From Myxococcota bacterium (GTDB taxonomy: Bacteria > Myxococcota > JACRCW01), in assembly GCA_040752415.1 (NCBI GenBank), contig JBFMGU010000240.1, positions 1 through 16,353 of the forward strand: 16,353 nt of DNA, written 5' to 3'. A program made the position numbers and the translations under genes. The notes beneath the pieces are model-generated. The model made no database searches and had not been told where the DNA came from. It saw only the letters and a list, made by a program, of their open reading frames with translations. This document shows, one piece after another, positions 83-15,977 of the stretch; position 1 is the first letter of the stretch, and each line of letters begins with the position of its first letter.

Positions 83-346
83 ATGGAGGACAGGGTGTTG
101 CGCCGTGTGCGGAGGCTCCTTTATAGTGCCGCGCTCTCCGGGCTCGTGCTCGGTCTGTCCGCCTCGGCGGCAACCGCGCAGCAGCGCAAGAAGATCGTGC
201 TGGGAGAGATCACGGTGGAGGGACGCAGGCAGAAGCCCCAGGCCTTCTACATCCTGCAGCGTCAGAACCTGAACTTCGAGGGGCTGGAGCTGAAGAAGAG
301 TTTTGTGCCGAAGATCGAGAAGTCCGTGGAGAAGCAACCGTTTTGA
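83..346 (+). CDS. GltF/CglF (NfsF)-like small exported protein, 87 aa
   Basis: Strong SD. Arg-rich n-region, hydrophobic h-region and ATA cleavage site indicate a Sec signal peptide. The mature part ITVEGRRQKPQAFYILQR...SFVPKIEKSVEK resembles the IEG-x3-KP pattern of CglF-like proteins. It lies directly before a gltG-like gene. Probably a paralogue, so no symbol is given. Confidence 0.72.
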   Translation: MEDRVLRRVRRLLYSAALSGLVLGLSASAATAQQRKKIVLGEITVEGRRQKPQAFYILQRQNLNFEGLELKKSFVPKIEKSVEKQPF

Positions 347-442
347 TGGAATGGTGGCGCGGCTGGAACCGGTGAAGAACGGCGGGTGTCCCTCCGACAG
401 AACCCCGGTGACAGCGCGGAAAGCGACTGCAAAGGTAGCCCG

Positions 443-1804
443 ATGACCACGCAGCAGAAGTCGGCGGAAAAGATCCTCAGGATCGGCGTCATCCACGGCG
501 GCAAGATCGTGGAGGAGCGCCTGCTGAAGAAGCGGGAAGTGGTCTCCGTGGGCTCCGACCCCAAGAACACCTTCGTGCTCCCCGGGGCGGACATCCCCAA
601 GAGCGTGAAGCTGTTTGACTGCAAGGGCGCCATCTACACGCTGTGCTTCACCGACAAGATGGACGGCCGTCTCTCCGTCAATGAGAGCGTCATCGACTTT
701 GCCGGCCTCAAGAGCCAGAACCTGGCCACCAAGACGGGCGACACCTACCGCATCAACCTCACCGACAGCTCCCGCGGCAAGGTGCAGGTGGGCGACGTCA
801 CGCTGCTCTTCCAGTTCGTGGTGCCGCCACCCGTGGCTCCCAAGGCCACGCTGCCCGCGGTGGCGCGCGGCGGCATCATCAAGGGCATGGACCCGCTGTT
901 CTCGGGTCTGATGATCGGCTCCATCGTCTTCCACTTCGGCAGCGCCGCGTTCCTCTCCACGGTGGACCCGCCGCCTCCGCCCACCCTGGAAGACGTGGGT
1001 GAGCGCTTTGCCAAGTACATTGCGCCGGACATCACCAAGCTCAAGCCACCGCCCAAGGTGGAGGAGAAGGTGGCCGACGCTCCCGCCGAGAAGAAGGCGG
1101 AGAAGAAGCAGGACGACGGCAAGAAGGCCGAGAAGAAGGACAGCGGCGCCAAGAAGGCCCAGGACAGCGCGGCGCGCAAGGCCGCCATCCAGAAGGCCGT
1201 GGCCAGCAAGGGTCTCCTCAAGGTGCTCGGCGCGCGCGGCGGCGGCGGTGCCTTTGCCGACGTGTTCTCCAACTCCGGGCCCGGTCAGGGACTGGGGGAG
1301 CTGCTCTCGCAGTCCGGCGGCGTGGGCATTGCCAAGGAAGGCGACGGAGCGCTCTCCGGGCCGCGCGGCGCGGGCTCCGGCACCGGCGCGGCAGACATCG
1401 GCACGCTCAACACGGCGGGCGGCGGTGGCGGCGGCGGCGCGGCGGTGGGCGCCAAGTCCGCGGTGCAGGTGCGCGGTGAGGTGAAGGCCACCAACGTGGA
1501 AGAGGTGGACGGCAGCCTGGACCCCAAGGTCATCACCAAGACCATCCGCGCCCGCATGGCCGGCTTCAAGGCCTGCTACGAGAACGCCCTCAAGCGCAGC
1601 CCCAACCTGCAGGGCAAGGTGACCATCAGCTTCACGATTGACGAGGAAGGCCGGGTCAGCGAGGCGTCCGTCGAGAACGACACGTTGGGGGACCCCGAGG
1701 TTGGTCGCTGCATTGCCAACCTGTTCAAGCGCATCCGCTTCCCCAAGCCAGACGAGGGGACGGTGCAGGCGTCCTTCCCGTTTGTGTTCGTGCCCTCCGG
1801 CTGA
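443..1804 (+). CDS. GltG/PglI-like TonB/TolA-type inner-membrane energy transducer (FHA-like N-domain, one TM helix, low-complexity linker, AgmX/PglI/TonB-like C-domain), 453 aa
   Basis: ATG 443 follows AAAGGT and is preferred over the ORF-track GTG at 386. The N-terminal beta-rich domain reads KILRIGVIHGGKIVEERLL...VSVGSDPKNTFVLP. The TM segment contains SIVFH. The linker is rich in Pro, Lys/Glu and Gly. The C-domain IRARMAGFKACYENALKRSPNLQGKVTISFTIDEEGRV...VGRCI...FPKP...FPFVF carries the typical Cys pair. Confidence 0.88.
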   Translation: MTTQQKSAEKILRIGVIHGGKIVEERLLKKREVVSVGSDPKNTFVLPGADIPKSVKLFDCKGAIYTLCFTDKMDGRLSVNESVIDFAGLKSQNLATKTGDTYRINLTDSSRGKVQVGDVTLLFQFVVPPPVAPKATLPAVARGGIIKGMDPLFSGLMIGSIVFHFGSAAFLSTVDPPPPPTLEDVGERFAKYIAPDITKLKPPPKVEEKVADAPAEKKAEKKQDDGKKAEKKDSGAKKAQDSAARKAAIQKAVASKGLLKVLGARGGGGAFADVFSNSGPGQGLGELLSQSGGVGIAKEGDGALSGPRGAGSGTGAADIGTLNTAGGGGGGGAAVGAKSAVQVRGEVKATNVEEVDGSLDPKVITKTIRARMAGFKACYENALKRSPNLQGKVTISFTIDEEGRVSEASVENDTLGDPEVGRCIANLFKRIRFPKPDEGTVQASFPFVFVPSG

Positions 1805-1919: not shown

Positions 1920-2825
1920 GTGAAGGCCAAGCAGCTCCCCGAGGTGAGGGAAATCGTCAACAGCGAGCTGTTCCGCTCGTGGTTTGACGCGCTCACCAAG
2001 GCCCGCCTGGCCGCGCGGGAGGCCTCCCTCCGTCATGACGAGGTCCTCACCCAGGTTCACCTCATGGAGTTCCGCGCGGAGCTGGCCCAGAAGAAGGCCA
2101 TGGACGCGCTGTACCGCTCCGGCGACTACGAGAACGCCTCCGCCCAGATGCAGGCCGAAGCCAGTGAGCTGGAGAACAAGAGCCTGGAGGTGGTGGGCCA
2201 GTTCGAGAAGCAGCGCGTGATGTGCACCGAGCTGTGGGTGGCCCTCACCAAGGCGGAGGAGCAGAACGACCCCCGGGCCAAGCGCATCAAGGACGACTAC
2301 GAGCGCGAGACCGCCAAGAAGACGCTGCTCTGGGAAGAGGTGGAGAGCCTGTGGGCGGCCAGCCTGGCCAAGAACCTGGCCATGATCGAGAACCGCGCCA
2401 AGGGCAAGCGCGTGCGCAAGGAGAGCGAGCAGCTCTTTGCCAACGCGGAGCAGGGGAGCCGGTCGGCGGCGGCGTTGAAGGCCGAGACCCAGGAGTCCGC
2501 GCGCGCCCTGGAGCAGGCGGAGGAAGCGGTCCGGGACCTCATGAACAAGGGGCGCACCCAGTTTGACGCCGTGGTGCACGAGGACTTCCTCTACTGGGCC
2601 GCGCGCGAGAACAAACTGGTCTACGTGGTTCCCCTGTTCTCCGACAGCGAGCACTACAACATCGAGCTGACCGCCTGCACCGTCTACCAGTGCGAGCGGA
2701 CGCGCGGCGTGGAGTTCCTGGAGCCGGTCATGGAGCCGCAGAAGGCCACCCGCGTGGACACCCGCCTGGATGACTTCTTCCTCAAGGACCGCCCCAAGGT
2801 GAAGCGCGAGAAGCAGGATGCGTGA
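1920..2825 (+). CDS. Hypothetical cytoplasmic protein, 301 aa; long predicted coiled coil plus a small C-terminal alpha/beta domain
   Basis: GTG start with GGGAGG upstream and strong GC3 codon bias. The first ~210 aa are Glu/Ala/Lys/Leu-rich and helical. No signal peptide or TM segment is seen and no family is recognised. Confidence 0.8.
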   Translation: MKAKQLPEVREIVNSELFRSWFDALTKARLAAREASLRHDEVLTQVHLMEFRAELAQKKAMDALYRSGDYENASAQMQAEASELENKSLEVVGQFEKQRVMCTELWVALTKAEEQNDPRAKRIKDDYERETAKKTLLWEEVESLWAASLAKNLAMIENRAKGKRVRKESEQLFANAEQGSRSAAALKAETQESARALEQAEEAVRDLMNKGRTQFDAVVHEDFLYWAARENKLVYVVPLFSDSEHYNIELTACTVYQCERTRGVEFLEPVMEPQKATRVDTRLDDFFLKDRPKVKREKQDA

Positions 2826-2837
2826 GCGGAGGACGTC

Positions 2838-3284
2838 GTGAACAAGGCGGAAGTGCTGCAGAAGTCCCGGCTCTTCGAGAACCTCCTCCCCGAGGAGATC
2901 GAGATGCTGGCCGAGCTCAGCGTCATGCGTCGCTACAAGGGCGGTGAGGTGGTCTTCGAGAAGGGGGACGTGGGCGACAGCCTGTTCATGGTGGTGGAAG
3001 GTGACGTGGAGGTGCTGCTGCGCGACGGCAGCGGCGAGCCCAAGGTGCTGGCCACCCTGGGCATCCACGACTTCTTTGGGGAGATGAGCCTCATCGACAA
3101 GGAGTACCGGAGCGCCACCGTGCGGGCCAAGAGCGACTGCGCGCTCCTCCTGCTCACCCACGAGAACCTGCACGCCTTCTCCAAGGCCTTCCGGGAGGGC
3201 TTCACCTGGATCACCGTGAACATTGCCCGGGTGCTCAGCCAGCGCCTGCGGGAGACCAACCGCCGCCTGGCCGAGAAGCTCTGA
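2838..3284 (+). CDS. Stand-alone cyclic nucleotide-binding domain protein (CRP/Fnr-type sensor domain, no HTH), 148 aa
   Basis: GGAGG SD at 2828-2832 and a GTG start. Motifs VFEKGDVGDSLFMVVEGDVEV and the phosphate-binding cassette FFGEMSLIDKEYRSATVRA are present. It ends just after the C-helix (IARVLSQRLRETNRRL). Confidence 0.92.
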   Translation: MNKAEVLQKSRLFENLLPEEIEMLAELSVMRRYKGGEVVFEKGDVGDSLFMVVEGDVEVLLRDGSGEPKVLATLGIHDFFGEMSLIDKEYRSATVRAKSDCALLLLTHENLHAFSKAFREGFTWITVNIARVLSQRLRETNRRLAEKL

Positions 3285-3361: not shown

Positions 3362-6300
3362 TTGAGCAGCGCAGCTGGCTGCAGATGCATCTGTCCCGCG
3401 TCACGTCGTGCCACCGTCCTTTTGTCCGCGGCGGTGCTGTTGACGACGTTGCGATCCCTCCCCGCGCACGCCGGTGAGCTTCGCGGCTGGCCCGTCCGCC
3501 TGGAGTCCGGCATCACCGCCAGCAATCCCGCCGTCGGCGACATTGACGGGGACGGGCGCCTGGAAGTGGTGGTGGGCGCGGGGCAGAGCCTGCACGCGGT
3601 GCGCGCCAACGGCGGCATGGTCGACGGCTGGCCCGTGAAGCTGGCGGGCGAGAAGACCACGCGCAACGAGTTCCCCGCATCCCCCACGCTGTGTGACCTC
3701 GACGGCAACGGCGCGCTGGAAGTGGCCGCGTTGGGCCTGGATCACAAGCTGCACGCGCTCACCGGCGAGGGGCTGCCGGTGGCGGGCTTTCCCGTCGAGG
3801 GTGGTGGCGCGTGGGCCAGCGCCCCGGCGTGCGCGGACCTGGACGGCGACAACCGGCCCGAGCTGGTGTGGGCGGGCAGCGACGGGGTGGTGCGTGCCGT
3901 CGACGGGACGGGGCGCGTGGTGCCGGGCTTCCCGCTGAAGGATCTGCGCGCCGCGGAAGGCATGCTCGCCGTGGGCGACCTGCACGTGAGCCCGGGCGTC
4001 GAGATCGTGGTGGGCGCGGTGGATGGGCGCGTGCACGTGCTGGGGCGCAAGACGGGGAAGGGCGCGTTTGCCTCCGTGGAGGGATTCCCGGTCAAGACGC
4101 AGTTCACTGTCAGCGGCGGCCCCGCCCTGGCCGACCTGGACGCCGACGCCACGCTGGACCTGGCCTTCGGCAGCCAGGACTTCTCCATCCACGCGCTGCG
4201 TGGCGACGGCTCCCACCTGCCGGGCTTTCCGCAGCAGACCAGCTACCGCATCTACGCCCAGCCCGCGCTGGCGGACCTCACCGGCGACGGAAAGCGCGAG
4301 GTGGTGGTGGGCGGTGCCGACGGAAATGTCTACGCGTTCCAACCCGACGGCACTCCCGCCCCGGGGTGGCCGGTGAAGCTGGGGGGTCGCATCAACGCGT
4401 GCGCGGCCGTGGGTGACCTCGACGGCGACGGCAGCCAGGAGGTGGTGGTGGCCAGCGCGGAAGGTCGACTGCACGTGCTGCGCGCCAACGGCACGCCGGT
4501 GGGCGGTTTCCCGGAGACGCCCGGCGGAGCGCTGCAGTCCGCGCCGGTGATCGTGGACCTGGATGGCGACGGACGCATCGAGGTGATCGTCGGAGGCGCG
4601 GCGGGGAAGCTGCACGCCTACAGCTTTGCCAACCTGGGCAAGGTGAAGCGTCCGTACATCGCGTGGCCAACCGCGGGTCATGACGCGGGTCGCGTGTCAC
4701 GCGTGCGGCCCAACGCCGCCATGTTCCTGGGCGTGGCGGTGGCCCCGGATGCCGCGCGCACCGAGGACGAGCTGACCGTGCGCTACCGCTTCGTCGACCT
4801 GGATGGCGACGCGGAGAAGGACACGCAGGTCCGCTGGTACCTGGATGGCCAGCTGGTGACGGAGCTCAACAACAAACGCGCCGTCCCACGTGAGCGCACC
4901 GCCAAGCGACAGCGCTGGAGCTACACGCTGCAGGAGGGCGCGGACTTCCAGGCGCAGGGAGAAGGGAAGGGCGCCACCATCTGGCGCAGCAACGAGCTCA
5001 CCGTGGCCAACACCGCGCCCACGGCACCGGTGGTGGGATTCAAGAACCAGGAGCCCCGGACCGACGACGTCCTGGAAGTGGTCATCACCCAGCCCGCGCA
5101 GGATGCCGACCAGGACACGCTGCAATACCGCTTCCGCTGGTTCCGCAACCGCGAGGCGGTGACGGACCTCCCACTCTCCGCGAGCACGGTGGACGGTACG
5201 CGCACGCGCAAGGGGGAGCGTTGGCGCGTGGTGGTCACGGCGTTTGATGGCGAGGTGGAGGGCGCGTCGGGTGCTGCGGACGTGACGGTGCTCAACACCA
5301 CGCCCAGCGCGCCGGGCCTGGTCCTCGATCCCGCGGAGCCGGGCGCGGCGGTCCCGGTGCACGCGGTCATCCAGAAGCCCAGCACGGACCCCGATGGCGA
5401 CGTCATCACCTATGAATACGCGTGGAGCGTGAACGGTGGCCCGGTGCCGCTCATGAAGGACCGCGACACGCTCCCGCCGTACTCGGTGCGCAAGGGCCAA
5501 CGCATCACGCTGGTGGTGACCCCGCGCGACGACGAAGCGCCCGGCCAGACCACGACGTTGGAGACCACCGTGGTGAACACGCCACCCCGCCCGGCCGCGG
5601 TGACGGTCCTTCCCTCCGGCGCCCGCACCGACGACGATCTGCAGGCGTCCATCAGCGCGCCCGCTCATGACGTCGACGGCGACCACGTGACCTACGCGTT
5701 CACCTGGGCGCGCGACGGCCAGCCGCTTCCCGCCACGGACCCGCTGACGGTGCCCCGCGACCAGACCGTGAAGGGCCAGAAGTTCACCCTCACCGCGCTT
5801 CCCTCCGACGGTACCCGCGACGGAACCCACGCCAGCGGAGACCTGACCGTGGCCAACACCGCGCCGGGCGGGGCCCGGGCCCACCTGGAGCCCTCGGAGC
5901 CGCGCGCGGGCGACACGATGAAGGTGGTCATCGACCAGCCCGCGCCCGACGCCGACGGGGACGCGGTCAGCTACCGCATTCGCTGGCTGCGCGACGGCAA
6001 GGATGAAACCGCGCGCGCCAAGGGCGAGGCGCTGCCTGCGGGCATCATCCGCAAGGGCGAGGTCTGGCAAGCCGTGGTCACCGCTTTCGACGGCGTGGCC
6101 ACCGGCACTCCCGTTTCCACCGACGAGAAACGCGTGCTCGACACCCCTCCCACCTCACCCACCGTGGCGGTGCGCGCCAAGGGCAGCAGTGGAACCGCCG
6201 TGGGCACCGAGGACGTGCTGGTGGTGCAGGTGGTGAAGCCCGCCACCGACGTCGACAAGGACGCGGTGAGCTACCGGTACCGCTGGTTTGTCGACGGGAT

Positions 6301-9300
6301 GCTGCAGGACGTGCCGGATACCCAGGACGCCATCCCCGCCGCACGCACCGAGCGCGGTCAGACCTGGCGCGTGGAGGTGACGCCGGTGGCGGATGGCAGG
6401 CGCGGCACCCCCGTGACGTCGGAAGTCACCGTGGGCAACACGCCACCCAAGGCTCCGCCGCTGTCCATCTTCCCGGCCAAGCCGCTGGCGGGGCAGTCGC
6501 TGCGGGTGAGCATGGGGCGCGCTCCCGAGGACGCCGACGGCGACCCGGTCCGTCTCACGTTCCGCTGGCTCCGCAACGGCTCCCCCGCCGGCGTGGAAGG
6601 CGCGGTGGTGCCCGCGGGGCGGACGCGCAAGGGTGAGACCTGGACCGCCGTGGCCACCCCCGCCGACGACAACGGTGACGGCGCGCCCACGCAGGTGGCG
6701 GTGATGGTGGGCAATACCCCGCCGGCGCCCCCGCGCATCCAGGTGACGCCGCTCTCGCCGCGCACCACCAACGTCGTCGAGGTGCAGGTGTTGCAGCCGG
6801 CCAGCGACGTCGACGGGGACGCGGTGAAGCTGGGGTACACGTGGTTCGTCGACGGCGCGGAGGCCAAGGCGCTGGCGGGCAAGACGCGGCTGGCGAAGGG
6901 TGAGTTCAAGAAGAACCAGCGCCTGCGCGTGGAGGTCACTCCCTCCGATGGGACCGCGTCGGGAGCCAAGGTGGTGGCGGAGATCCGCAGCGTCAACAGC
7001 GCGCCGTCCGCACCGCAGGTCCGCCTGCAGCCCGCCGACGTGGCCGTGCCCGGTCCGCTGAAGGTGGAGATGACCGCGCCCGCGCAAGACCCCGACGGCG
7101 ACGGGCTGACGTACCGCCACCGCTTCTATCGCAACGGCACGCTGTTGACGCTGCCGCCCACCACCACCGCGGTGCCCAAGGAGATGCTCCGTCGTGGGGA
7201 TGCGTGGCGCGTGGAGGTGGTCGCGTACGACGGGGAGACCGAGGGGCCGGCAGGCAGCGCCGAGGCGTTGGTGGTGAACGCGGCTCCCTCGTCGCCCAAG
7301 GTGCGCTTCGTCCATGACACCGTCACGGTGGCCGGCCCGCTGGACGTGGAAATCACCACCCCCGCCGTCGACGCCGATGAAGACACGCTGCAATACCAGC
7401 ACCGGTTCCGTCGGAACGGGCAGGTGGTGGACCTGCCGTCGTGGCGGTCCGGCGTTCCGCGCACGCTGCTCAAGAAGGGTGACAAGTGGTCCGTGGACGT
7501 CGTGGCCACCGACGGACAGCTCCGCAGCGCGCCCGCCACCGCGGAAGCCAAGGTGGTGAACACGCCGCCCACCGCGCCCGTGGTGCGTTTCAGCGCGCAG
7601 CGCAACGGCAGCCAGCCGCTGAAGGTGGAGCTGGTGGCCCCCGCCCACGACGTCGACGGCGACACGCTGACCTACCGCTACCGCTACACGCGCGCCGGCG
7701 GCGCAGTGAAGCTGGATCCCAAGACGGACACCATTCCCGTCACCATGTTGCGCGCCGGCGAGAAGTGGCAGGTCACCGTGGTGGCGTTCGACGGCGAGAA
7801 GGAGGGGCCCGTCGCCAGCGCGGAGGCCGTGATTCAACCGCCCAACACGCCGCCCGTCGAGGAGGCCGCGCCCGCCATCCCCGCGCCGCCCGTCCTCCCG
7901 TCGGAGACCGAGCCCACCGCGCCCGCGCCGCCGGATCCCGCCACGCAGGCGCCTCCTCCGTCGCGACCGGCGGTGTGTCGCGCGCAGGGGCCGACAGAGA
8001 ATGCACTACCGCGCGCGGGCGAGGCGCTGCGCGTGGTCTTTGGCACGGACGCGGTCTCACAGGCCGCCGCCGCGGGAACGGTCCAGTGGCTGCGCGACGG
8101 GCAGGACGCCGTCCGCGGCAACGAGGTCCCGCCGGGCACCGTGCGCAAGCGCGAGCGCTGGCAACCGGTGGTGACGACGTCGGACGGCAAGACGGTGCGC
8201 TGTCGCGAGCTGACGGTGGGAGACACCCCGCCCGGTGCCCCCGCGGTGACCCTGACGCCGACCGGGCCGCGCGCCGGGCAACCCCTCACGGCGGAGGTGG
8301 TGGCGCCGGGAAGCGACGTCGACGGGGACGCGGTCAGCGTGCGCTTCCGTTGGTTCCTCGACGGTGTGCCCCAGGACATCCCGGAGCGCGACGCGGTGGT
8401 CGCCGGCGCGCGCGTGCGCAAGGGGCAGCGCTGGCGCGTGCAGGCCGTTTCCGTGGCCGACGGCGCGGAGGGCGCGAGCGCGGGCGCGGAGGTGACGGTG
8501 GGCAACACGCCGCCGGCACCGCTGGAGATTGTGGTCACGCCAGCGCAGCCGCTGCCCGGGCAGGAGCTGGAGGTGAACCTGGCGCGTCCCGCCGACGACG
8601 TCGACGGAGACCCGGTGGCGCTCCGCTTCCAGTGGATTGTCAACGGGCAGGACGCGGGAATCGCCGAGCCGAGGGTGCCGGCGCGTCGCCTCAAGAAGGG
8701 CGAGGTGTGGCAGGTGTGGGTCATTGGCAGCGACGGAGAAGTGGAGACGCCGCCCGCCGGCGCCAAGGTCACCGTGCGCAATGCGTTGCCCACGCCGCCG
8801 GTGGTGAGCCTGGGAGAGTCGCGCATCCGCGCGGGGAGCGCCGTGGAGGTCAAGCAGCTGCGCGCCGCCGCGGACTCCGACGGTGACAAGGTCACGGTGA
8901 GCTACACGTGGTGGGTGGACGGCAAGGAGGTCCCGGCGTTCAAGGGGCGCACCCGCCTGGAGCCCACCGAGCTCAAGAAGAACCAGCGCATCCGCCTGGT
9001 GGCCACGCCTCACGACGGAGCCGAGGCTGGCCCTTCCGTGCACGCCGAGGTGCAGGTGCTCAACACGCCGCCCACCGCACCGGCGATCCGTTTCAACAAG
9101 GAGCAGCTCCCGGTCACGGAGGCCCTCAAGGTAGAGCTGACCCGCCCGGCCACCGACGCCGACGGAGACACGCTCACCTACCGCTACCGCTTCCTGCGCA
9201 ACGGCGTGCGCGTGAAGCTGCCGGAGTCGGAGAGCGCGGTACCGGCGGCCATGATGAAGAAGAACGAGCGCTGGCGCGTGGAGGTGGTGGCGTTTGACGG

Positions 9301-10225
9301 CGAGGAGGAGGGGCCGGCGGTGTGGGCGGAGGCGGTGGTGATCAACACGCCGCCCCGGGCTCCCGTGCTGGCCGTGACACCGCGCGAGCCGCTCACCACC
9401 AACACGCTCACCTGCGCCGTCACCAGCCCCGCGCAGGACGTGGACGGCGACGTGGTGACCTACCGCACGCGCTGGCTGCGCAATGGCCAGCCGGTTCCGC
9501 TCGTCGACGGTGACCGGCTCTCCCCGGAGGCCACGCACCGCGGCGAGAAGTGGAGCTGCACCGCGGCCGCGCACGACGGGGAGGCGCTGGGCGCGTGGGG
9601 GAACGCCGGGGAGGTGACGGTGCTCAACACCGCGCCCCAGGCGCCGCAGGTGGGGGTGGTGCCGCGCGCGCCCAAGGTGGGTGAGCCGCTGAGCTGTCGC
9701 GTGGCCAGCGAAGCCCGCGACCACGACGGCGACCCGCCGCGCTACACATTCCGCTGGGAGAAGAACGGTCGCCCGGTGGCGAAGCTGGACGGGGCGTTGG
9801 AGGTGCCGGGCGCGGAGGTGCGTCGCGGGGACCGCTGGGGCTGCTGGGCCCAGGCCGCGGACGACGCGCGCAGCGGGGAACCCGGGCCCCGCACCGAGGT
9901 GGCCGTGGGGAACACGCCGCCCAGCGCGCCGGTGGTGGAGGTGCTGCCCGCCTCACCACGCCCCGGGGACCCGCTCCGCTGCGAGGTGCGCCAGGTCTCC
10001 GTGGATCCCGACGGGGACCGCGTCAGCTACCGCGTGGTCTGGGAGAAGGACGGCGTGCAGCAGTCGTTCGCCTCCACCGAGGTCCAGGTGGCCGGTCGCC
10101 TGGTGATGGCTGGCCAGACCTGGCGCTGCATCCTGACCGCCAGCGACGGACGACTGGACAGCCCCCCGGGCCGCAGCCCGCCGGTTTCGGTCCAGCCCAC
10201 GGGATCCCCCGCCGCGTCGCGCTGA
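3362..10225 (+). CDS. Giant exported repeat protein, 2287 aa: signal peptide, 8 FG-GAP/VCBS-like repeats (beta-propeller), ~19 cadherin/Ig-like repeats with an internal Pro-rich linker
   Basis: Uninterrupted 6.9-kb ORF with GC3 bias. The TTG start has GGAG 7 nt upstream, but the exact start is uncertain. The h-region ends in AHA|G. It has repeated DLDGDG-x2-E-VVV blades, then ~95-aa units of the form NTPP...D-x-DGD-x-(V/L)-x-Y-x-(Y/F)-x-W...KG-x2-W-x-V-x-V...DG. Confidence 0.88.
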   Translation: MSSAAGCRCICPASRRATVLLSAAVLLTTLRSLPAHAGELRGWPVRLESGITASNPAVGDIDGDGRLEVVVGAGQSLHAVRANGGMVDGWPVKLAGEKTTRNEFPASPTLCDLDGNGALEVAALGLDHKLHALTGEGLPVAGFPVEGGGAWASAPACADLDGDNRPELVWAGSDGVVRAVDGTGRVVPGFPLKDLRAAEGMLAVGDLHVSPGVEIVVGAVDGRVHVLGRKTGKGAFASVEGFPVKTQFTVSGGPALADLDADATLDLAFGSQDFSIHALRGDGSHLPGFPQQTSYRIYAQPALADLTGDGKREVVVGGADGNVYAFQPDGTPAPGWPVKLGGRINACAAVGDLDGDGSQEVVVASAEGRLHVLRANGTPVGGFPETPGGALQSAPVIVDLDGDGRIEVIVGGAAGKLHAYSFANLGKVKRPYIAWPTAGHDAGRVSRVRPNAAMFLGVAVAPDAARTEDELTVRYRFVDLDGDAEKDTQVRWYLDGQLVTELNNKRAVPRERTAKRQRWSYTLQEGADFQAQGEGKGATIWRSNELTVANTAPTAPVVGFKNQEPRTDDVLEVVITQPAQDADQDTLQYRFRWFRNREAVTDLPLSASTVDGTRTRKGERWRVVVTAFDGEVEGASGAADVTVLNTTPSAPGLVLDPAEPGAAVPVHAVIQKPSTDPDGDVITYEYAWSVNGGPVPLMKDRDTLPPYSVRKGQRITLVVTPRDDEAPGQTTTLETTVVNTPPRPAAVTVLPSGARTDDDLQASISAPAHDVDGDHVTYAFTWARDGQPLPATDPLTVPRDQTVKGQKFTLTALPSDGTRDGTHASGDLTVANTAPGGARAHLEPSEPRAGDTMKVVIDQPAPDADGDAVSYRIRWLRDGKDETARAKGEALPAGIIRKGEVWQAVVTAFDGVATGTPVSTDEKRVLDTPPTSPTVAVRAKGSSGTAVGTEDVLVVQVVKPATDVDKDAVSYRYRWFVDGMLQDVPDTQDAIPAARTERGQTWRVEVTPVADGRRGTPVTSEVTVGNTPPKAPPLSIFPAKPLAGQSLRVSMGRAPEDADGDPVRLTFRWLRNGSPAGVEGAVVPAGRTRKGETWTAVATPADDNGDGAPTQVAVMVGNTPPAPPRIQVTPLSPRTTNVVEVQVLQPASDVDGDAVKLGYTWFVDGAEAKALAGKTRLAKGEFKKNQRLRVEVTPSDGTASGAKVVAEIRSVNSAPSAPQVRLQPADVAVPGPLKVEMTAPAQDPDGDGLTYRHRFYRNGTLLTLPPTTTAVPKEMLRRGDAWRVEVVAYDGETEGPAGSAEALVVNAAPSSPKVRFVHDTVTVAGPLDVEITTPAVDADEDTLQYQHRFRRNGQVVDLPSWRSGVPRTLLKKGDKWSVDVVATDGQLRSAPATAEAKVVNTPPTAPVVRFSAQRNGSQPLKVELVAPAHDVDGDTLTYRYRYTRAGGAVKLDPKTDTIPVTMLRAGEKWQVTVVAFDGEKEGPVASAEAVIQPPNTPPVEEAAPAIPAPPVLPSETEPTAPAPPDPATQAPPPSRPAVCRAQGPTENALPRAGEALRVVFGTDAVSQAAAAGTVQWLRDGQDAVRGNEVPPGTVRKRERWQPVVTTSDGKTVRCRELTVGDTPPGAPAVTLTPTGPRAGQPLTAEVVAPGSDVDGDAVSVRFRWFLDGVPQDIPERDAVVAGARVRKGQRWRVQAVSVADGAEGASAGAEVTVGNTPPAPLEIVVTPAQPLPGQELEVNLARPADDVDGDPVALRFQWIVNGQDAGIAEPRVPARRLKKGEVWQVWVIGSDGEVETPPAGAKVTVRNALPTPPVVSLGESRIRAGSAVEVKQLRAAADSDGDKVTVSYTWWVDGKEVPAFKGRTRLEPTELKKNQRIRLVATPHDGAEAGPSVHAEVQVLNTPPTAPAIRFNKEQLPVTEALKVELTRPATDADGDTLTYRYRFLRNGVRVKLPESESAVPAAMMKKNERWRVEVVAFDGEEEGPAVWAEAVVINTPPRAPVLAVTPREPLTTNTLTCAVTSPAQDVDGDVVTYRTRWLRNGQPVPLVDGDRLSPEATHRGEKWSCTAAAHDGEALGAWGNAGEVTVLNTAPQAPQVGVVPRAPKVGEPLSCRVASEARDHDGDPPRYTFRWEKNGRPVAKLDGALEVPGAEVRRGDRWGCWAQAADDARSGEPGPRTEVAVGNTPPSAPVVEVLPASPRPGDPLRCEVRQVSVDPDGDRVSYRVVWEKDGVQQSFASTEVQVAGRLVMAGQTWRCILTASDGRLDSPPGRSPPVSVQPTGSPAASR
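3476..4700 (+). repeat. Eight FG-GAP-like (DxDGDG) repeats with G(W/F)P spacers
   Basis: Blade cores: DIDGDG, DLDGNG, DLDGDN, DLHVSP (degenerate), DLDADA, DLTGDG, DLDGDG, DLDGDG. Each is preceded by GWP or GFP. The region closes with WPTAGHDAGR. Confidence 0.85.
4712..10195 (+). repeat. Tandem array of ~19 protein-level beta-sandwich repeats (~95 aa, ~285 nt each)
   Basis: Counted by eye: 18 units carry DxD(G/Q/K/E)D and one unit (~7970-8221) lacks it. Most units start with N/D-T-P-P or NxAP. The repeats are diverged at the DNA level. Confidence 0.82.
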
Positions 10226-10400
10226 ACAGCCTGCCGCATCCGCGCCACACACCGGACGCATGCCCAAATCCGTCCGTCCGTTGGCCACGCCCGCCGAGGC
10301 GTCGCGCGCATCCAAGCAGTGGGCGCACCCGCCAAACCGTGGTATCGGCCGGGGGTTGGGCGGTGCACGCAGGCGTGCCGCCCTGGCATCTGGGGCAGTC

Positions 10401-12182
10401 ATGAACATTCGGCATGGACTGACGGTTGCGGGTCTGGTGTGCGTGTTGGCGGCGCCCCACGTGGCGCGCGCGGACGCGAAGGATGCTTCCCAGGAGATGG
10501 GCATCCGGCTCACGGAGCGGGCCAAGCTGCACCTGGCGCTGGGCGCGCTGATGGGCATTGACAGCAACCCCAACGCGGTGCCCTACGAGCTGACCCGCGC
10601 GCGCGCCAGCAACGAGCAGGCACAGTTCTTCAACGGCCCGGCGGTGACGGTGCCGGAGGGGCTGCCGCATCCCAACAAGCTGGTCTTTGAATTCCCGCCC
10701 GACGCGTTCCTGGCGCTGCGTCCTTCCATGGCGTTCAACATGCCGGGGGACCGCCTCAACGCCAACGCCAACATTGGCCTGAACTATTACGAGTACCTGG
10801 GCATCTTCCAGCCGGGCCTGCCGTTCATCCCCGGCACCGCGGCGTCCAAGAGCGGGTACAGCGTCTGGGCCTACAACAGCGGCTACCGACGGCTGCGCAC
10901 CCTGGACGGCTCCGCTTCCGGCGGCCTGGAGCTCAACCGGACGGGGCCGTTCGGCCTGGCGCTCAGCGGTGGCCTGATGCGCTCGGTGGATCCGGGCCCC
11001 ATCGTGGTTGGGACGCGGCTGGCGCGCACCAACGCCAACGGCACCATCGCCGGCGTGGCCCGGCCGGGCGGTGGGACCATGTCCTTCACCGGGTCGCTGG
11101 GCGTCTCCGCGGAAATCTACGACCCGCAGAACGGCAAGGACTTCTTTGGCAACCCCATCCCGCCGTTCAGCGCCGGCCCCAGCGCCGGTCCGCTGTTCCT
11201 GTTCGGTGAAGGGAACCCCGTGGACGTGATGGGCCTGGCGCCCGCCGCCAACGCCACCGTGGACCCGCGGCAGTTCCACAACGCGGGCTCGTCGCTGTCG
11301 TTCCAGTGGCAGTGGCGCTTCCTGCCCAAGAGCGCGGTGTACGCCGGCGCCAGCGCAGGCACGCACTTCTACCTGTACCCGTTCCAGAACACGAACGCGC
11401 CCTCGTTCCCCGTTGGCGCGTCCATTGGCTACCTGGGGCAGATCACCGCCAAGCTGGGCCTGGTGGCCTCGGTGGGGTTCACCTATCCCATCTTCATCTG
11501 CCTGGAGCCCCTGGCGGCTCCCTCGGCGGCCACGCAGAGCTGCTCGGCCAACACCGGGTTCATCAACGGGCAGCCGCAGAACAACGCGCAGGGCCAGTCC
11601 GACCTGGAAACCCTGGGCGTTCCCGTCGCGCAGTACCTGTGGTGGGCACCGGAGCTGACCCGGTGGCAGTCGTACGCGTCGGCGCCGGGGGGCCAGCTGG
11701 AGGCCCGCTACCAGTTCACGCCCACGCTGGCCGGCGCGGTGGGGGTCCGTCGGCAGCTGCGGCTGGTCCCGCTCTACCGCTACCTCACCGACAACCGCGT
11801 CTACGCCACGCTGGTGGGCACGTTCATGCAGCGCTTCCAGGTGTCCCTGACGGCGTCGGAGGCGGTGCAGCCGCACGGTCAGCTCACCGAGAGCACCGCC
11901 GGGTACAACCAGTACCCCTTTGACGAGCAGTTCCGGCAGCTGGTGCCCGCGCTGGCCAACAGCGACCCGGGCCGCTGGGACAATGACCTGAGCGTCTCCG
12001 CCGCGCTCAACGTGGCGCTGCTGAAGTGGTTCCTGGTGGGCGTGGGCAACACCCTGACCTGGCACGCCACCAACGCCGCCACCGGCGGGCCCAATGACTC
12101 CCCCGGCGTCTATAACGAAAAGCCGTTCAATCTCAGCTACGTGCGCAACGTGACGGTGCTGCAGGCTGAACTGCGCTATTAG
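10401..12182 (+). CDS. Outer-membrane beta-barrel for polysaccharide export (Wzp/EpsX/ExoB-like), 593 aa
   Basis: ATG 10401 gives a clean signal peptide MNIRHGLTVAGLVCVLAAPHVARA|D and is preferred over the ORF-track start at 10260. It has a DSN motif after the first strand, many alternating amphipathic strands, and a C-terminal BAM beta-signal VTVLQAELRY. It lies 6 nt upstream of a short OPX gene. Confidence 0.75.
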   Translation: MNIRHGLTVAGLVCVLAAPHVARADAKDASQEMGIRLTERAKLHLALGALMGIDSNPNAVPYELTRARASNEQAQFFNGPAVTVPEGLPHPNKLVFEFPPDAFLALRPSMAFNMPGDRLNANANIGLNYYEYLGIFQPGLPFIPGTAASKSGYSVWAYNSGYRRLRTLDGSASGGLELNRTGPFGLALSGGLMRSVDPGPIVVGTRLARTNANGTIAGVARPGGGTMSFTGSLGVSAEIYDPQNGKDFFGNPIPPFSAGPSAGPLFLFGEGNPVDVMGLAPAANATVDPRQFHNAGSSLSFQWQWRFLPKSAVYAGASAGTHFYLYPFQNTNAPSFPVGASIGYLGQITAKLGLVASVGFTYPIFICLEPLAAPSAATQSCSANTGFINGQPQNNAQGQSDLETLGVPVAQYLWWAPELTRWQSYASAPGGQLEARYQFTPTLAGAVGVRRQLRLVPLYRYLTDNRVYATLVGTFMQRFQVSLTASEAVQPHGQLTESTAGYNQYPFDEQFRQLVPALANSDPGRWDNDLSVSAALNVALLKWFLVGVGNTLTWHATNAATGGPNDSPGVYNEKPFNLSYVRNVTVLQAELRY

Positions 12183-12188
12183 CGGGCC

Positions 12189-12800
12189 ATGGTGGATCGG
12201 TTTCTCCGTCGTGGGTGGGTCTGGGCGCTGCCGCTCCTGCTGGTGTTGGGAGGGTGCCCGGGCAACGCCACCACCACCGCGGAGGAGCGGCCCGCCACCG
12301 CGCTCCCCGCCGCCGACACGCTGGACGTGGGCGACGTCATCGAGGTCAAGGTCTACGGTGAGCCGGACCTCAGCGGCTCCCACAAGGTCCGCAGCGACGG
12401 GACGGTGGGCCTGCCGCTGGTGGGTCTGGTGAACGTGCGCGGGATGACGCCGGAGCTGGCCGCCGACGCCATCAGCAACGCCTACGCCAAAGGCTACCTC
12501 AAGAACCCCCAGGTCTCGGTGGTGGTGACGGCGTTCAATTCCAAGCGCTTCTACGTGCTGGGCGCGGTGAACAATCCCGGCGTGTTTGCCTACGAAGCGG
12601 ACATGAACATCCTGCGGGCGGTGATCATGGCGGGAGGATTCGCGCCCAACGCCTCCAAGAACAGCGTGCTGGTCACGCGCACGGTCAAGGGTGTGGAGAC
12701 CCGGATTGAGGTGGCGGTGGATGACATCGGGCAGGGAAAAGCCAAGAATTTCCCTCTCTTGCCGGGGGACATTGTATACGTCCCCACCTCCCTGCTCTAG
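12189..12800 (+). CDS. wza: Short polysaccharide export (OPX/Wza-like) lipoprotein, Poly_export plus one SLBB domain, 203 aa
   Basis: Lipobox-like LVLGG|C. PES motif LDVGDVIEVKVYGEPDLSG...VRSDGTVGLPLVGLVNVRGMT...YLKNPQVSV. SLBB domain FYVLGAVNNPG...AVIMAGGF. It ends at LLPGDIVYVPTSLL. Confidence 0.92.
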   Translation: MVDRFLRRGWVWALPLLLVLGGCPGNATTTAEERPATALPAADTLDVGDVIEVKVYGEPDLSGSHKVRSDGTVGLPLVGLVNVRGMTPELAADAISNAYAKGYLKNPQVSVVVTAFNSKRFYVLGAVNNPGVFAYEADMNILRAVIMAGGFAPNASKNSVLVTRTVKGVETRIEVAVDDIGQGKAKNFPLLPGDIVYVPTSLL

Positions 12801-12809
12801 GCGGCAGCC

Positions 12810-15035
12810 GTGGCTGAAGCGCACCTGGTTCCACCGCACAACCCTCCGCCCCCGGGCCAGGCCCTGGAGGACGCGCCGCTGGACCTGCGCCAGTACTGGA
12901 ACACCATTGTCAACCACCTCTGGACGGTGGTGCTGGTGACGGTGGCGGTGACGGCGGGCACCACGCTGTGGACCCTGCGCCAGCCCAAGATCTACCGCGC
13001 CCAGGCCCAGGTGGCGGTGGACTTCAACACGCCCAAGGTGCTCTCCGAGGTGCGCGAGGTGGTGGAGCTGGGCTCGCTCACCGCCTGGAACAACCGCGCC
13101 TACATGGACCTGCAGCTGGCCATGTTGCGCTCCCGGGAGGTCTCCCTGGAGATTGCGCGGCGGCTGGCGGAGGACCCCACCTTTGTCCCGGTGAGCGAGC
13201 GCGAGAGCGCGCTGCGCTGGCTGCCCAACTACGTCCGGGGCGTGCTCCAGGCCTCCAGCGACAAGGACAGCCGCATCGTCAACATCGTGGCGGAGGACAC
13301 GGCGCCGGAGCGCATCACCCGCGTGGTGAACGTGGCGGCGGATGTCTTCATCGAGCGCAATCTGGAGCAGAAGATGGAAGCCACCGTGGGCGCCAATGAG
13401 TGGCTGGTGGGCCAGGTGGATGAGTTGGAGGGCAGCCTGGAGAAGAGCGAGGTGGCGCTCCAGAGGTTCAAGGAGGAGCACGACATCCTGAGCGCCACGT
13501 TCGAGGACCGGCAGTCCATCAACAGCCAGGACCTGCTGGCGCTCAGCAAGGCCATCACCGACCTCCGCCTCCGCAAGATGGAGCTGGAGGTGCGCGAGCA
13601 GCAGACGCAGCGGGTGATGGCGGAGTCCGCCGACGGCGGCCTGGGGGTGCGCGCGCTGCCCCAGGTCTACAGCAACGCGAGCGTCCAGGAGCACCACGCC
13701 GAGCTGCAGAAGCTCCGGACCGAGCGCGCGGACCTCCTGAGCCGGTACGGCGAGCTGCACCCCAAGCTGCAAAGCATTGAGCGGCAGATCCAGATGCAGC
13801 AGGAGGAGCTTGACCGCGAGATCCAGCTCATCCTGGAGGTGGAGCGTCGGTCCCTCTCGGAGCTCAACGAGGTGGAAAAGGTCTACGAGACCGCCCTGGA
13901 GCGCGCCAAGTCCGAGGCGTTCGAGGTCAACCGGCACGAGATTGCCTACAACCGGCTCAGGCGGGAGCAGACCAACAACGAGCGCCTGTACGAGATGGTG
14001 CTGCGTCGCCAGAAGGAGGCGGACCTCTCCGCGGCCATGAAGTTCAACAACATGCGCCTGATGGAGAAGGCGTTGGTGCCCAACACGCCGGTGCGCCCCA
14101 ACAACACGCGCAACGTCATGTTTGGCATGATCATCGGCCTGCTGCTGGGCATTGCCATGGCATTCCTCCTGGAGTTCCTGGACAACACCGTCAAGAGCCA
14201 GGCCGACGTGGAGCAGAAGCTGGGGATGGTGTTCCTGGGCGTGCTGCCGTCCATCAAGTCCACCACCGGCGAGGCCACGCCGGAGGCCAAGGAGGGCACT
14301 GCCCGCAGCCCCTCACGCGACCTGCACGTGCACCTCTACCCGAAGAGCGCGGTGGCGGAGTGCTGTCGGGCGCTGCGCACCAACCTGCTGTTCATGACGC
14401 CGGACGCGCCGCTGAAGACCATCCTCATCACCAGCCCGGGTCCGCAGGAAGGCAAGACCACCGCCGCCATCAGCCTGTCCATTGCCATGGCGCAGTCCGG
14501 CGGGCGCACGTTGCTGGTGGACACCGACCTGCGTCGGCCGCGCATCCACAAGAGCTTCCAGATCTCCAACCAGGTTGGCGTCACCAGCGTTCTCGTCGGG
14601 GACTGCGAGCTGAAGGACGCCATCAAGAGCACCGAGGTGCCAGGCCTGTACGTGCTGCCCTGCGGGCCCATCCCGCCCAATCCCGCGGAGCTGCTGCACA
14701 CCGCGCGCTTCCAGGAGACGCTGGAGAAGCTCAAGGAGCAGTTTGACCGCGTGATCCTGGACAGCCCGCCGGTGGGCGCGGTGGCCGACGCGCTCATCCT
14801 CAGCTCCTACGTGGGCGGCGTGGTGATGGCGCTGCGCTGCAACAAGACCAGCAAGGACATGGCGGCCCGCACGCGCCGGGCGTTGGTGGACGTCAACGCG
14901 CACATGCTGGGCGTGGTGCTGAACGACCTCGATCTCGAGAGCAAGTCTGGCTACTACAGCTACTACCTGGCCCGGTACGGCTACGTGTACGGCGACCCGG
15001 AGGGCGAGGGTACCAGCAGCGCCAAGGCGGCGTGA
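12810..15035 (+). CDS. wzc: Polysaccharide co-polymerase with fused BY-kinase (Wzc, PCP-2a), 741 aa
   Basis: Wzz-like N-terminus LDLRQYW, TM1 and PKIYRA. Long periplasmic coiled coil with YGELHP. TM2 is GMIIGLLLGIAMAFLLEFLDNTVKS. Kinase motifs: E-x2-R-x-LRTNL, Walker A SPGPQEGKTT, A' LLVDTDLRRP, Walker B VILDSPP, and Tyr cluster YYSYYLARYGYVY. Confidence 0.95.
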   Translation: MAEAHLVPPHNPPPPGQALEDAPLDLRQYWNTIVNHLWTVVLVTVAVTAGTTLWTLRQPKIYRAQAQVAVDFNTPKVLSEVREVVELGSLTAWNNRAYMDLQLAMLRSREVSLEIARRLAEDPTFVPVSERESALRWLPNYVRGVLQASSDKDSRIVNIVAEDTAPERITRVVNVAADVFIERNLEQKMEATVGANEWLVGQVDELEGSLEKSEVALQRFKEEHDILSATFEDRQSINSQDLLALSKAITDLRLRKMELEVREQQTQRVMAESADGGLGVRALPQVYSNASVQEHHAELQKLRTERADLLSRYGELHPKLQSIERQIQMQQEELDREIQLILEVERRSLSELNEVEKVYETALERAKSEAFEVNRHEIAYNRLRREQTNNERLYEMVLRRQKEADLSAAMKFNNMRLMEKALVPNTPVRPNNTRNVMFGMIIGLLLGIAMAFLLEFLDNTVKSQADVEQKLGMVFLGVLPSIKSTTGEATPEAKEGTARSPSRDLHVHLYPKSAVAECCRALRTNLLFMTPDAPLKTILITSPGPQEGKTTAAISLSIAMAQSGGRTLLVDTDLRRPRIHKSFQISNQVGVTSVLVGDCELKDAIKSTEVPGLYVLPCGPIPPNPAELLHTARFQETLEKLKEQFDRVILDSPPVGAVADALILSSYVGGVVMALRCNKTSKDMAARTRRALVDVNAHMLGVVLNDLDLESKSGYYSYYLARYGYVYGDPEGEGTSSAKAA

Positions 15036-15059: not shown

Positions 15060-15977
15060 ATGAGCATCACCGTTCCCGCCGCGGGTGCCGTCAGCAGCCT
15101 GGCCGTGCGCAAGGGCATTGTGCTGGCGGGTGGTCGCGGCACGCGCCTCTATCCGCTGACGAGCTTTGCCAACAAGCAGCTCCTGCCCGTCTATGACAAG
15201 CCCATGGTCTACTACCCCATCAGCACCCTGATGCTGGGGGGTATCCGCGACATCCTCATCATCAGCGGCCCCGACGAGATTCCGCTCTACCAGCGCCTGC
15301 TGGGCAGCGGAGACCGCTACGGCGTGCGCTTCAGCTACGCGGTGCAGGCGGCGCCGCGCGGCATTGCCGAGGCCTTCCTGGTGGGGGAGGAGTTCATTGC
15401 CGGGCAGTGCTGCAGCCTCATCCTGGGCGACAACATCTTCTTTGGCACCCTGGATTTCCTGCGCGCCGCGCTCCACCGCGAACAGGGCGCCACCGTCTTT
15501 GGCTACCGCGTGAAGAACCCGCAGGAGTACGGCGTGGTGGAGATGGCGCCGGACGGTCGCGCGTTGTCCCTGGAGGAGAAACCCGCCGCCCCGCGCAGCA
15601 ACTACGCCGTGCCTGGCCTGTACGTGTACGACCAGCAGGTGGTGGAGATTGCCCGCAACCTCAGGCCCTCCCCGCGCGGGGAGCTGGAGATCACCGACGT
15701 CAACCGCGTCTACCTGGAGCGCAAGCAGCTGCGCGTGGAGTTGCTGCCGCGCGGCATGGCCTGGCTGGACACCGGCACGGTGCAGAGCCTGCTGGACGCC
15801 AGCGAGTTCGTGGGCGCGATTGAGCGGCGGCAGGGCCTCAAGATTGCGTGCCTGGAGGAGGTGGCGCTGCGCATGGGGTTCGTCTCGCCGGCGCAGATGC
15901 GCGAGGTGATTGCCCGGTACCCGGCCAGCGAATACCGCACGTACATTGAAGGGATCCTGGGCGAGGCGGGCGCTTGA
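15060..15977 (+). CDS. rmlA: Glucose-1-phosphate thymidylyltransferase, 305 aa
   Basis: Motifs KGIVLAGGRGTRLYPLT, KQLLPVYDKPMVYYP, LILGDNIF, EEKP, SNYAVPGLY, RGELEITD, WLDTGT and RQGLKIACLEE. GGAG SD upstream. Confidence 0.96.
   Translation: MSITVPAAGAVSSLAVRKGIVLAGGRGTRLYPLTSFANKQLLPVYDKPMVYYPISTLMLGGIRDILIISGPDEIPLYQRLLGSGDRYGVRFSYAVQAAPRGIAEAFLVGEEFIAGQCCSLILGDNIFFGTLDFLRAALHREQGATVFGYRVKNPQEYGVVEMAPDGRALSLEEKPAAPRSNYAVPGLYVYDQQVVEIARNLRPSPRGELEITDVNRVYLERKQLRVELLPRGMAWLDTGTVQSLLDASEFVGAIERRQGLKIACLEEVALRMGFVSPAQMREVIARYPASEYRTYIEGILGEAGA

Follow-up and report, generated by a model that had tools for sequence, protein, structure and literature searches.

What does a secreted protein of 2,287 residues, with no visible anchor, do beside a polysaccharide-export barrel in a member of the Myxococcota? 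The question is posed by a window of 16,353 bp (the whole stretch of DNA analysed here, and the entire contig, C158, of an 11.0-Mb, 520-contig genome, G000), which is ~70% G+C with every plausible gene on the + strand, and which holds a giant-protein open reading frame (ORF) at 3362-10225 (+). The product, hereafter the giant, is an anchorless, lectin-like protein exported by Sec, in which 19 Ig-like domains form a rod that carries a propeller head. It belongs, as an optional part that varies between lineages, to a conserved envelope module of two halves. Judged from sequence, one half of this module looks like a Glt/Nfs-like force-transducing apparatus and the other like a BPS-type class-3 OPX/Wzp/Wzc exporter. 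The giant's association with the Glt-like half, which was missed by a first-pass annotation of the same window, is stronger than its association with the barrel and OPX genes. We tentatively prefer the reading that the propeller may bind the exported polysaccharide and that the rod may hold it, acting for the machine as its cargo arm or else tethering the polymer to the matrix.

The giant's ORF opens with a TTG codon, with GGAG 8 nt upstream, and the protein is present in the public protein collection (as P0006) with the identical start. Its parts lie on the window as follows:

3362..3472, + strand: signal peptide, aa 1-37 (by eye and alignment)
3473..4630, + strand: eight-bladed FG-GAP beta-propeller, aa 38 to ~423 (Pfam, structure model)
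4724..7855, + strand: repeats R1-R11, beta-sandwich, ~94 aa each (repeat alignment, model of R1-R2)
7856..7996, + strand: proline-rich linker, aa 1499-1545 (sequence)
7997..10225, + strand: repeats R12-R19 and a short tail (repeat alignment)

The N-terminus, read by eye and from conservation, has an n-region with an RR/basic stretch, a hydrophobic core and then ...LPAHA, followed by GELRGWPV; in the printed frames of 13 of 15 relatives the hydrophobic leader likewise ends directly before an (L)RGFP or GFP mature start. At the other end, the last Ig-like repeat is followed by an 18-residue tail closing in PTGSPAASR. No membrane helix is seen, because no 19-residue stretch reaches a mean Kyte-Doolittle value of 1.6 (the maximum, 1.5, lies inside the signal), and the C-terminus shows neither a hydrophobic stretch nor an NCBIfam MYXO-CTERM match. 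When compared with Pfam and NCBIfam at E <= 0.01, the giant hits no RTX/HemolysinCabind, autotransporter or MYXO-CTERM model, and the same libraries give no C-terminal beta-barrel domain and no N-terminal TPS domain.

The Pfam FG-GAP_3 model (PF13517) recognises the head in five stretches, scoring 97.1 bits (cut-off 26.9). In an AlphaFold2 model that covers residues 38-650 and draws on 53 aligned relatives (pLDDT 93.3, pTM 0.87), residues 38 to ~423 fold as a closed eight-bladed propeller, with structural comparison values of 41.6; 1.6; 317 for the designed Cake8 (320 residues), 37.4; 1.9; 318 for YxaL, 33.8; 2.2; 317 for BamB and 32.6; 2.6; 366 for Vibrio cholerae Bap1 (6mlt); Foldseek agrees. 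Each blade has a GFP/GWP turn, and five of the eight (at 60, 159, 258, 352 and 399) have a D-x-D-x-D motif, with variants in the other three; these are candidate Ca2+-binding loops.

Behind the propeller, a conserved linker leads into 19 units of ~94 aa that align in register, the first of which (R1) is a conserved special repeat with an insert. All except R12 (i.e., 18 of 19) contain D-x-D-x-D followed by an aromatic-rich strand, the consensus being PAxDxDGDxVxYRxRW, and both R1 and R2 are beta-sandwiches in the AlphaFold2 model. Scanned singly, none of the repeats rises above any Pfam cut-off; among the families checked for membership (Big_9, Cadherin_4, fn3 and PKD), the best sub-cut-off matches are to fn3 (E 1.6e-4, one repeat) and Cadherin_4 (E 0.01, two repeats). 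A profile of all 19 weakly matches Ig constant domains (E 1.7e-6) and protocadherin-15 (E 7.8e-5), and the ESM Atlas queried with R9-R11 returns unnamed Myxococcota clusters and Big_9/PKD/Ig_2 leads only. Within the rod, R5-R9 and R12-R16 (window 5867-9355) pair off in the same order as each other's closest or nearly closest matches (40-53% identity) and therefore point to an old five-repeat block duplication, with the proline-rich linker at the junction of the two blocks, directly before the degenerate R12. Much of the rise to 19 repeats is due to this duplication, and R9-R11 look like a further tandem expansion. A Cys pair occurs in each of R12, R17, R18 and R19; the 13 complete homologues examined all end directly after a Cys-containing last repeat and a short unconserved tail.

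Much of this anatomy had been read off the letters by the first-pass annotation. The Sec-type signal that it noted is borne out by eye and by the relatives' frames, its N-terminal propeller by the FG-GAP score and the model, and its ~19 acidic-motif beta-sandwich repeats by the register alignment, the motif count and the modelled R1-R2; the absence of a transmembrane helix, RTX repeats, a MYXO-CTERM-like tail and an autotransporter barrel likewise holds on hydropathy, Pfam and NCBIfam. Such an architecture recalls, at one end, the type I adhesins LapA, SiiE and MpIBP, with which the giant shares a long rod of Ca2+-motif Ig-like repeats and a putative ligand-binding region. These adhesins, however, lack a Sec signal and carry an RTX region with a secretion signal at the C-terminus, whereas the giant has the Sec signal and no RTX. 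At the other end, it recalls the V. cholerae matrix proteins Bap1 and RbmC, whose propeller (6mlt) is likewise eight-bladed, at 19% identity; the giant is without their beta-prism and mucin-binding domains, and they, in turn, are without the Ig-like rod and without Glt-like neighbours.

The giant belongs to an abundant but unstudied protein family. Of 8,000 proteins scored against its N-terminal 560 residues, 1,454 match at E <= 0.001; those that carry a name are mostly from Myxococcota or from metagenome bins labelled 'Deltaproteobacteria', and the three nearest are 2,288-2,306 aa long at 58-62% identity. One source assigns a homologue, P0119, to Anaeromyxobacter oryzae. With G000 counted, a match is found in 17 of 41 relative genomes and in 84 of the 401 Myxococcota species genomes sampled, for the most part at a single place in each, and because so many genomes hold a relative the giant is more than a chance occurrence. 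The spread across families is uneven: nearly all sampled genomes have a match in f4 (17/18), f21 (4/4), f8 (4/4) and f26 (7/9), about half in f15 (33/67), few in f11 (6/172) and none in f6 (0/20) or f10 (0/21). Lengths from the matched N-terminus to the stop, taken over the 56 loci introduced below, fall into classes of ~1,220-1,302 aa (29 loci), 1,496-1,559 aa (21) and ~1,800 aa (3), with the window alone at 2,287 aa and two shorter frames of 563 and 977 aa. These classes step by ~three repeats, and the homologues range from ~8 to 19 repeats.

The length of the rod bears on where the protein resides. The first-pass annotation had argued that a rod longer than a typical periplasm may therefore be exposed; this does not follow, since a rod may lie parallel to the membranes, as does the periplasmic complex in published modelling of the Glt machinery (PMC11761067), so that length does not exclude the periplasm. 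One might accordingly picture a periplasmic component whose rod lies under the outer membrane and scaffolds or measures the nascent polymer, or whose propeller is a trimming lyase or hydrolase. The searches of Pfam and NCBIfam, which found no export signal beyond Sec, and the parallel geometry just mentioned are consistent with this, as are a conserved polar cluster in blades 5-6 (S271, D273, Y295, R296, D305 and D309), Pfam lambda-carrageenase propeller matches of up to 58 bits against a cut-off of 26.8, and a weak rhamnogalacturonan lyase PL11_C match (E 1e-4, below its cut-off). The Pfam enzyme matches, however, rest on the FG-GAP repeat itself, and a more than two-fold variation in repeat number is a poor fit to a fixed periplasmic geometry. 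We therefore consider a periplasmic role quite unlikely.

What the giant works with can be approached through its neighbours. About 20 kb was fetched around each of 55 giant homologues, which with the window gives 56 loci: 15 come from the 16 non-own matches in relative genomes (a 292-aa fragment was left out) and 40 from further matches in the phylum, hand-picked for long contigs and a spread over families. The loci were scored by tblastn with queries from the window and five loci, and for ExbB/ExbD by Pfam; upstream counts, restricted to the giant's strand, refer to the 50 loci in which 3.5 kb or more precede the giant, and downstream counts to the 50 in which the giant gene is complete and 3.5 kb or more follow it. 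On the window, the upstream neighbours are:

83..346, + strand: small87, a GltF-like 87-aa secreted protein ending in ...KQPF (ORF, alignment, tblastn)
386..1804, + strand: GltG/GltJ-like TonB-type protein (NCBIfam NF033768, 102 bits, cut-off 40)
1920..2825, + strand: cc301, 301 aa, helical/coiled-coil, of no known family (by eye; Pfam, NCBIfam)
2838..3284, + strand: single-domain cyclic-nucleotide-binding (cNMP-binding) protein, 148 aa (PF00027, E 2e-22)

Across the loci, the giant is preceded by the GltG-like TonB-type gene in 46 of 50, by the 87-aa secreted ORF in 38 (34 of the 37 with at least 6 kb upstream), by the coiled-coil gene in 35, by the cNMP-binding gene in 31 and by an ExbB plus ExbD set in 21. 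These last loci each have one ExbB-like and two ExbD-like genes, set between the F-like and G-like genes. Further upstream, a scan of 24 of the 33 candidate ORFs beyond the 87-aa ORF, covering 16 of 20 loci and leaving out long opposite-strand frames and one short ORF, found tetratricopeptide-repeat (TPR) proteins in all 16 loci scanned, as a rule a shorter one (440-620 aa) and a longer one (750-1,350 aa). By TPR content and gene order these appear to be GltD/E-like. On the downstream side, p215, a helical secreted 215-aa protein with two conserved Cys and the tail RPPAASPYQ (e.g., L020:8919-9584), follows the giant in 36 of 50 loci, and the barrel and the OPX gene do so in 35 each; beyond the OPX gene, related loci hold sugar-nucleotide and Wzy/Wzc genes. 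The module genes all share the giant's strand. Where both flanks are available (45 loci), the two halves occur together in 33, the Glt-like half alone in 8, neither in 4 and the barrel alone in none. The association with polysaccharide loci on which the first-pass annotation had staked its interpretation thus holds, with barrel and OPX genes just downstream, and the GltG-like gene is closer still: its presence in 46 of 50 loci, together with the GltF-like and TPR genes and, often, ExbB/ExbD, indicates that the giant belongs to a Glt/Nfs-like machine.

The individual members of this half can be set against the described machinery. The Myxococcus xanthus glt cluster encodes gltD (1,191 aa, TPR), gltE (471 aa, TPR), gltF (89 aa, with a signal peptide), gltG (FHA and TonB_C with one membrane helix) and gltH, and aglR/Q/S with gltD/E/G/C constitute a 'core complex' (PMC3169522). 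The module shares the D-E-F-G order of Agl-Glt, Nfs and the related G4 cluster, i.e., two TPR proteins, a secreted protein of 87-89 aa and an FHA-like/transmembrane/TonB_C protein, and the one ExbB-like plus two ExbD-like genes of its motor-bearing loci are paralleled in AglR/Q/S. AglRQS is a proton-driven motor that contacts both GltG and NfsG, and Agl-Nfs moves around the spore and is needed for a compact coat from polymer exported by ExoA (Wza) (PMC3858216); the module's partnership with a Wza-type polysaccharide exporter resembles that of Nfs with Exo. The differences are that no giant propeller-rod protein has been described for Glt, Nfs or G4, and that Glt has neither a cNMP-binding nor a coiled-coil protein at the place where the module has both.

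The window's TonB-type protein has a cytoplasmic N-domain (FHA-like by eye), one membrane helix, a Pro/Lys/Gly-rich linker and an AgmX/PglI C-terminal domain. The GltG model NF033760 covers its residues 16-472 (E 3e-52) with 178 bits against a cut-off of 650, and a separate, better GltG match (547 bits) lies on contig C349 of G000, so that the window gene is best regarded as a GltG paralogue. A second paralogue of the same protein occurs at C493:29207-30502 of G000 (50% identity, E 8e-140), with no match to the other module queries on that contig. The small87 protein is conserved across the phylum, with E46, G47, K51 and P52 invariant and F87 nearly so, and has no Pfam or NCBIfam match; a gene of this kind is easily overlooked in annotation. 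Bona fide gltG loci have a secreted ORF of 89-92 aa directly upstream that shares a pattern with it (L075, L080), and tblastn of small87 against gltG loci gives a best E of 3e-4, with E <= 0.002 at that spot in three of six. Published modelling places a strand of GltF against the TonB-like domain of GltG (PMC11761067); a complex prediction for small87 (33-87) with the GltG-like C-terminal domain (360-472) scored 0.23 against a mark of 0.32, which is evidence neither way. No signal peptide is seen by eye in cc301. In locus L026 of the small-genome family f8, a PilZ-domain gene (L026:15153-15515) and a cNMP-binding gene (L026:16541-17008) stand just upstream of the giant, with no TonB-type gene upstream and no barrel or OPX gene downstream; this context hints at a possible second-messenger control of the giant itself.

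The same counts bear on the proposal that the giant, as a free matrix protein or an adhesin, leaves the cell in folded form through type II secretion and is retained only where it binds its cognate polysaccharide or foreign surfaces, being co-regulated with the module without any mechanical link to the Glt-like apparatus. A possible route for it exists: the first-pass annotation had held the crossing of the outer membrane to be unexplained, and there is no such paradox, since G000 encodes a GspD secretin (521 bits against an NCBIfam cut-off of 351) and a type II route is therefore available. Bap1 and RbmC themselves use type II secretion. The Sec signal without an anchor, a stalk varying from ~8 to 19 repeats, the giants of family f11 that lie away from the module (L039-L042) and the precedent of Bap1/RbmC as a 'double-sided tape' (PMC10102183) all agree with this proposal. 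It is at odds with the neighbourhood, in which the tightest partner is the GltG-like gene (46/50) and not the exporter (35/50), and in which eight loci keep the Glt-like half without barrel and OPX genes and none shows the reverse. On balance, we regard a free matrix protein as somewhat unlikely.

The second half of the module occupies the rest of the window:

10401..12182, + strand: Wzp-type outer-membrane beta-barrel, 593 aa (public gene call P0126, model)
12189..12800, + strand: class-3 OPX lipoprotein, 203 aa (Poly_export and SLBB only, lipobox LGGC)
12810..15035, + strand: Wzc-type polysaccharide co-polymerase/tyrosine autokinase (Pfam, NCBIfam)
15060..15977, + strand: RmlA glucose-1-phosphate thymidylyltransferase (TIGR01207, 423 bits, cut-off 361)
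15974..16351, + strand: UpxY/NusG-like antiterminator, cut by the contig end (PF02357, NF033644)

That the gene next to the giant encodes an outer-membrane barrel, as had been supposed, is upheld by a model with 18 long strands (pLDDT 75.6) and by the terminal ...LRY. The public call starts at Met48 of an ORF opening at 10260. The protein aligns with the ~420-aa barrels of related loci and is ~170 residues longer, the extra length lying in low-confidence loops of the model; only nine close homologues of this long form were found, one of them on a 31,574-bp contig, and a 2,306-aa giant homologue is likewise on a 31,574-bp contig. PF10082 is matched by 14 of 36 barrel-family members, the window's barrel not among them, and Foldseek returned generic barrels only (TM < 0.5), with no specific PgaA, BcsC or AlgE among the matches listed. 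The 640-aa ORF at 10260 was considered as a p215-barrel fusion and rejected, given the public start at Met48 and an N-terminus that consists of a signal peptide and the barrel-family opening motif, with no p215 motif. A resemblance between the giant's tail PTGSPAASR and the p215 tail RPPAASPYQ was also weighed as a shared motif and dismissed, the ends of close homologues being different. Elsewhere in G000, p215-like matches occur inside much longer unbroken frames on contigs C161 and C489.

The OPX protein is closest to M. xanthus sWzaB (PDB 9n9a; residues 27-202, E 2.6e-44), which serves as the model for class-3 OPX proteins (PMC12819527), and it is without the Wza_C helix. With WzaB-WzpB-WzcB of the BPS system, the window shares the short Poly_export and SLBB lipoprotein, the adjacent 18-stranded barrel and the adjacent Wzc; Wzp porins encoded beside wzaX, wzaS and wzaB are 18-stranded (PMC9603273). 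In contrast to WzaB, which has a Phe-Phe motif reported to bind WzpB (PMC12819527), the window's OPX ends in ...VPTSLL and has KN in place of the WzaB RR before PQVSV, so that the reported Phe-Phe and twin-arginine contacts are not conserved. The antiterminator gene encodes a NusG paralogue resembling UpxY, LoaP and RfaH; it has a 4-nt overlap with the RmlA stop and sits inside the polysaccharide gene row, not at its head.

The module also exists without the giant, in another family (f11). In all five f11 genomes considered, the best GltG-like (40-44% identity) and OPX (46-51%) matches lie 2.2-3.8 kb apart on one strand. The four such loci that were fetched read TPR - TPR - 87-aa ORF - GltG-like - p215 - barrel - OPX, with the coiled-coil gene (2/4) and then the cNMP-binding gene (3/4) between GltG-like and p215 and the giant gene absent from all four; in two of these genomes a giant homologue is found on another contig, in a locus without module genes (L039, L040). 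One f11 OPX is ~85% identical to WzaB over 163 residues and ends in ESFF, thus carrying the Phe-Phe motif that has been reported for WzpB binding (PMC12819527). In M. xanthus, wzaB is MXAN_1915 (bioRxiv 10.64898/2026.09.26.754727), the adjacent MXAN_1916 was later named WzpB (PMC9603273), and the gltD homologue of the G4 cluster is MXAN_1922, the function of G4 being unknown and its polar mutant gliding normally (PMC3169522). MXAN_1922 down to 1915 makes eight genes, which fits the eight-gene giant-less form in L081/L082. From the locus-tag numbering and the f11 loci, G4 would thus be contiguous with wzpB/wzaB, and, read against these locus tags, the module resembles a fusion of the BPS exporter with G4, the uncharacterised Glt-like cluster. 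A literature search (figures, supplements and subscription journals apart) gave no link of G4, TonB-type, ExbB/ExbD or FG-GAP proteins to BPS/OPX export: the main texts of PMC9603273 and PMC9601211 contain no TonB, ExbD, FG-GAP or propeller and that of PMC12819527 no TonB or propeller, and on MXAN_1917 to MXAN_1922 the search returned Luciano 2011 (PMC3169522) only.

These giant-less loci also speak to the idea that the giant is itself the cargo, threaded unfolded through the adjacent barrel with power from the TonB-type system and folding outside on Ca2+. The giant does adjoin both a barrel and a TonB-type system, and 18 of its 19 repeats have Ca2+-type motifs. Secretion of M. xanthus PopC, for its part, needs a TonB-dependent transporter. 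The barrel, however, goes with the OPX lipoprotein, is kept in f11 loci that have no giant and matches the published 18-stranded polysaccharide porins (PMC9603273), and eight loci have a giant and a TonB-type gene but no barrel, which together make this route very improbable.

The preferred reading, in which the propeller would bind the exported polysaccharide, can now be spelt out. The first half of the module comprises GltD/E-like TPR proteins and the GltF-like and GltG-like proteins, some lineages having their own ExbB-ExbD-ExbD motor, with the coiled-coil and cNMP-binding proteins on the cytoplasmic side. The propeller would bind the polysaccharide as it leaves the Wzp/OPX site, much as Bap1/RbmC binds VPS; direct binding of the V. 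cholerae exopolysaccharide by the eight-bladed propellers of these two proteins (PMC10102183) makes such a role in glycan binding plausible. The rod, presumably stiffened by its Ca2+-type motifs, would keep the polymer at a set distance from the pore or guide it there, serving perhaps as the cargo-binding arm of a Glt-like machine or as a matrix tether. Of the earlier interpretation, this retains the anatomy and the link to polysaccharide loci, and leaves behind the length argument and the supposed paradox at the outer membrane.

Several points weigh against it. The propeller fold is generic, and a shared fold shows no function; binding to the polysaccharide, coupling to the machine and location (at the surface via type II, or in the periplasm) are what we infer. 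The likeness of small87 to GltF is weak, with the best E of 3e-4 given above. The giant is dispensable for the module, as the four f11 loci lack it; conversely, the f11 loci L039-L042 hold the giant without any module gene, and in L024-L027 no more than the coiled-coil and cNMP-binding genes remain. The window itself departs from the common form, being without p215 (10226-12182) and having a barrel ~170 residues over the usual length. Its contig ends 82 nt before the GltF-like gene, on which account TPR genes and any ExbB/ExbD are not seen beside the giant in G000; ExbD-like genes do occur on other contigs of this genome. The locus sample, finally, was drawn from related genomes and chosen by the authors, and kin are not independent.

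A broader extension of the same reading may be considered. Agl-Glt/Nfs-type machines have been proposed to specialise by cargo (PMC3858216), and the module might be seen as a third working class of such motors, one for a BPS-like polysaccharide, with the giant as its cargo arm and G4 as the BPS partner in which the arm was lost. In such a class, an ExbB/ExbD-type proton-driven motor with its GltG-like TonB-type link, under cyclic-nucleotide control exerted from the cytoplasm, would act on the Wzp/OPX site, and the giant arm would grip the emerging polymer and carry or spool it along the cell surface. Taken as a whole, this scheme is unlikely.

Two questions of the myxobacterial envelope would become directly testable: what the Glt-like paralogue clusters do, their function having been unknown since 2011, and how polymer is passed on and arranged beyond the pore in class-3 OPX systems, which are the commonest kind. 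The analysis offers a concrete genetic link from a Glt-like cluster to the wzpB/wzaB pair, and the giant family constitutes a candidate polymer-binding output of Glt/Nfs-like machines. If the propeller does bind polysaccharide, the 'double-sided tape' principle would extend beyond Vibrio, and such binding could explain why the stalk changes in steps of ~three repeats between lineages.

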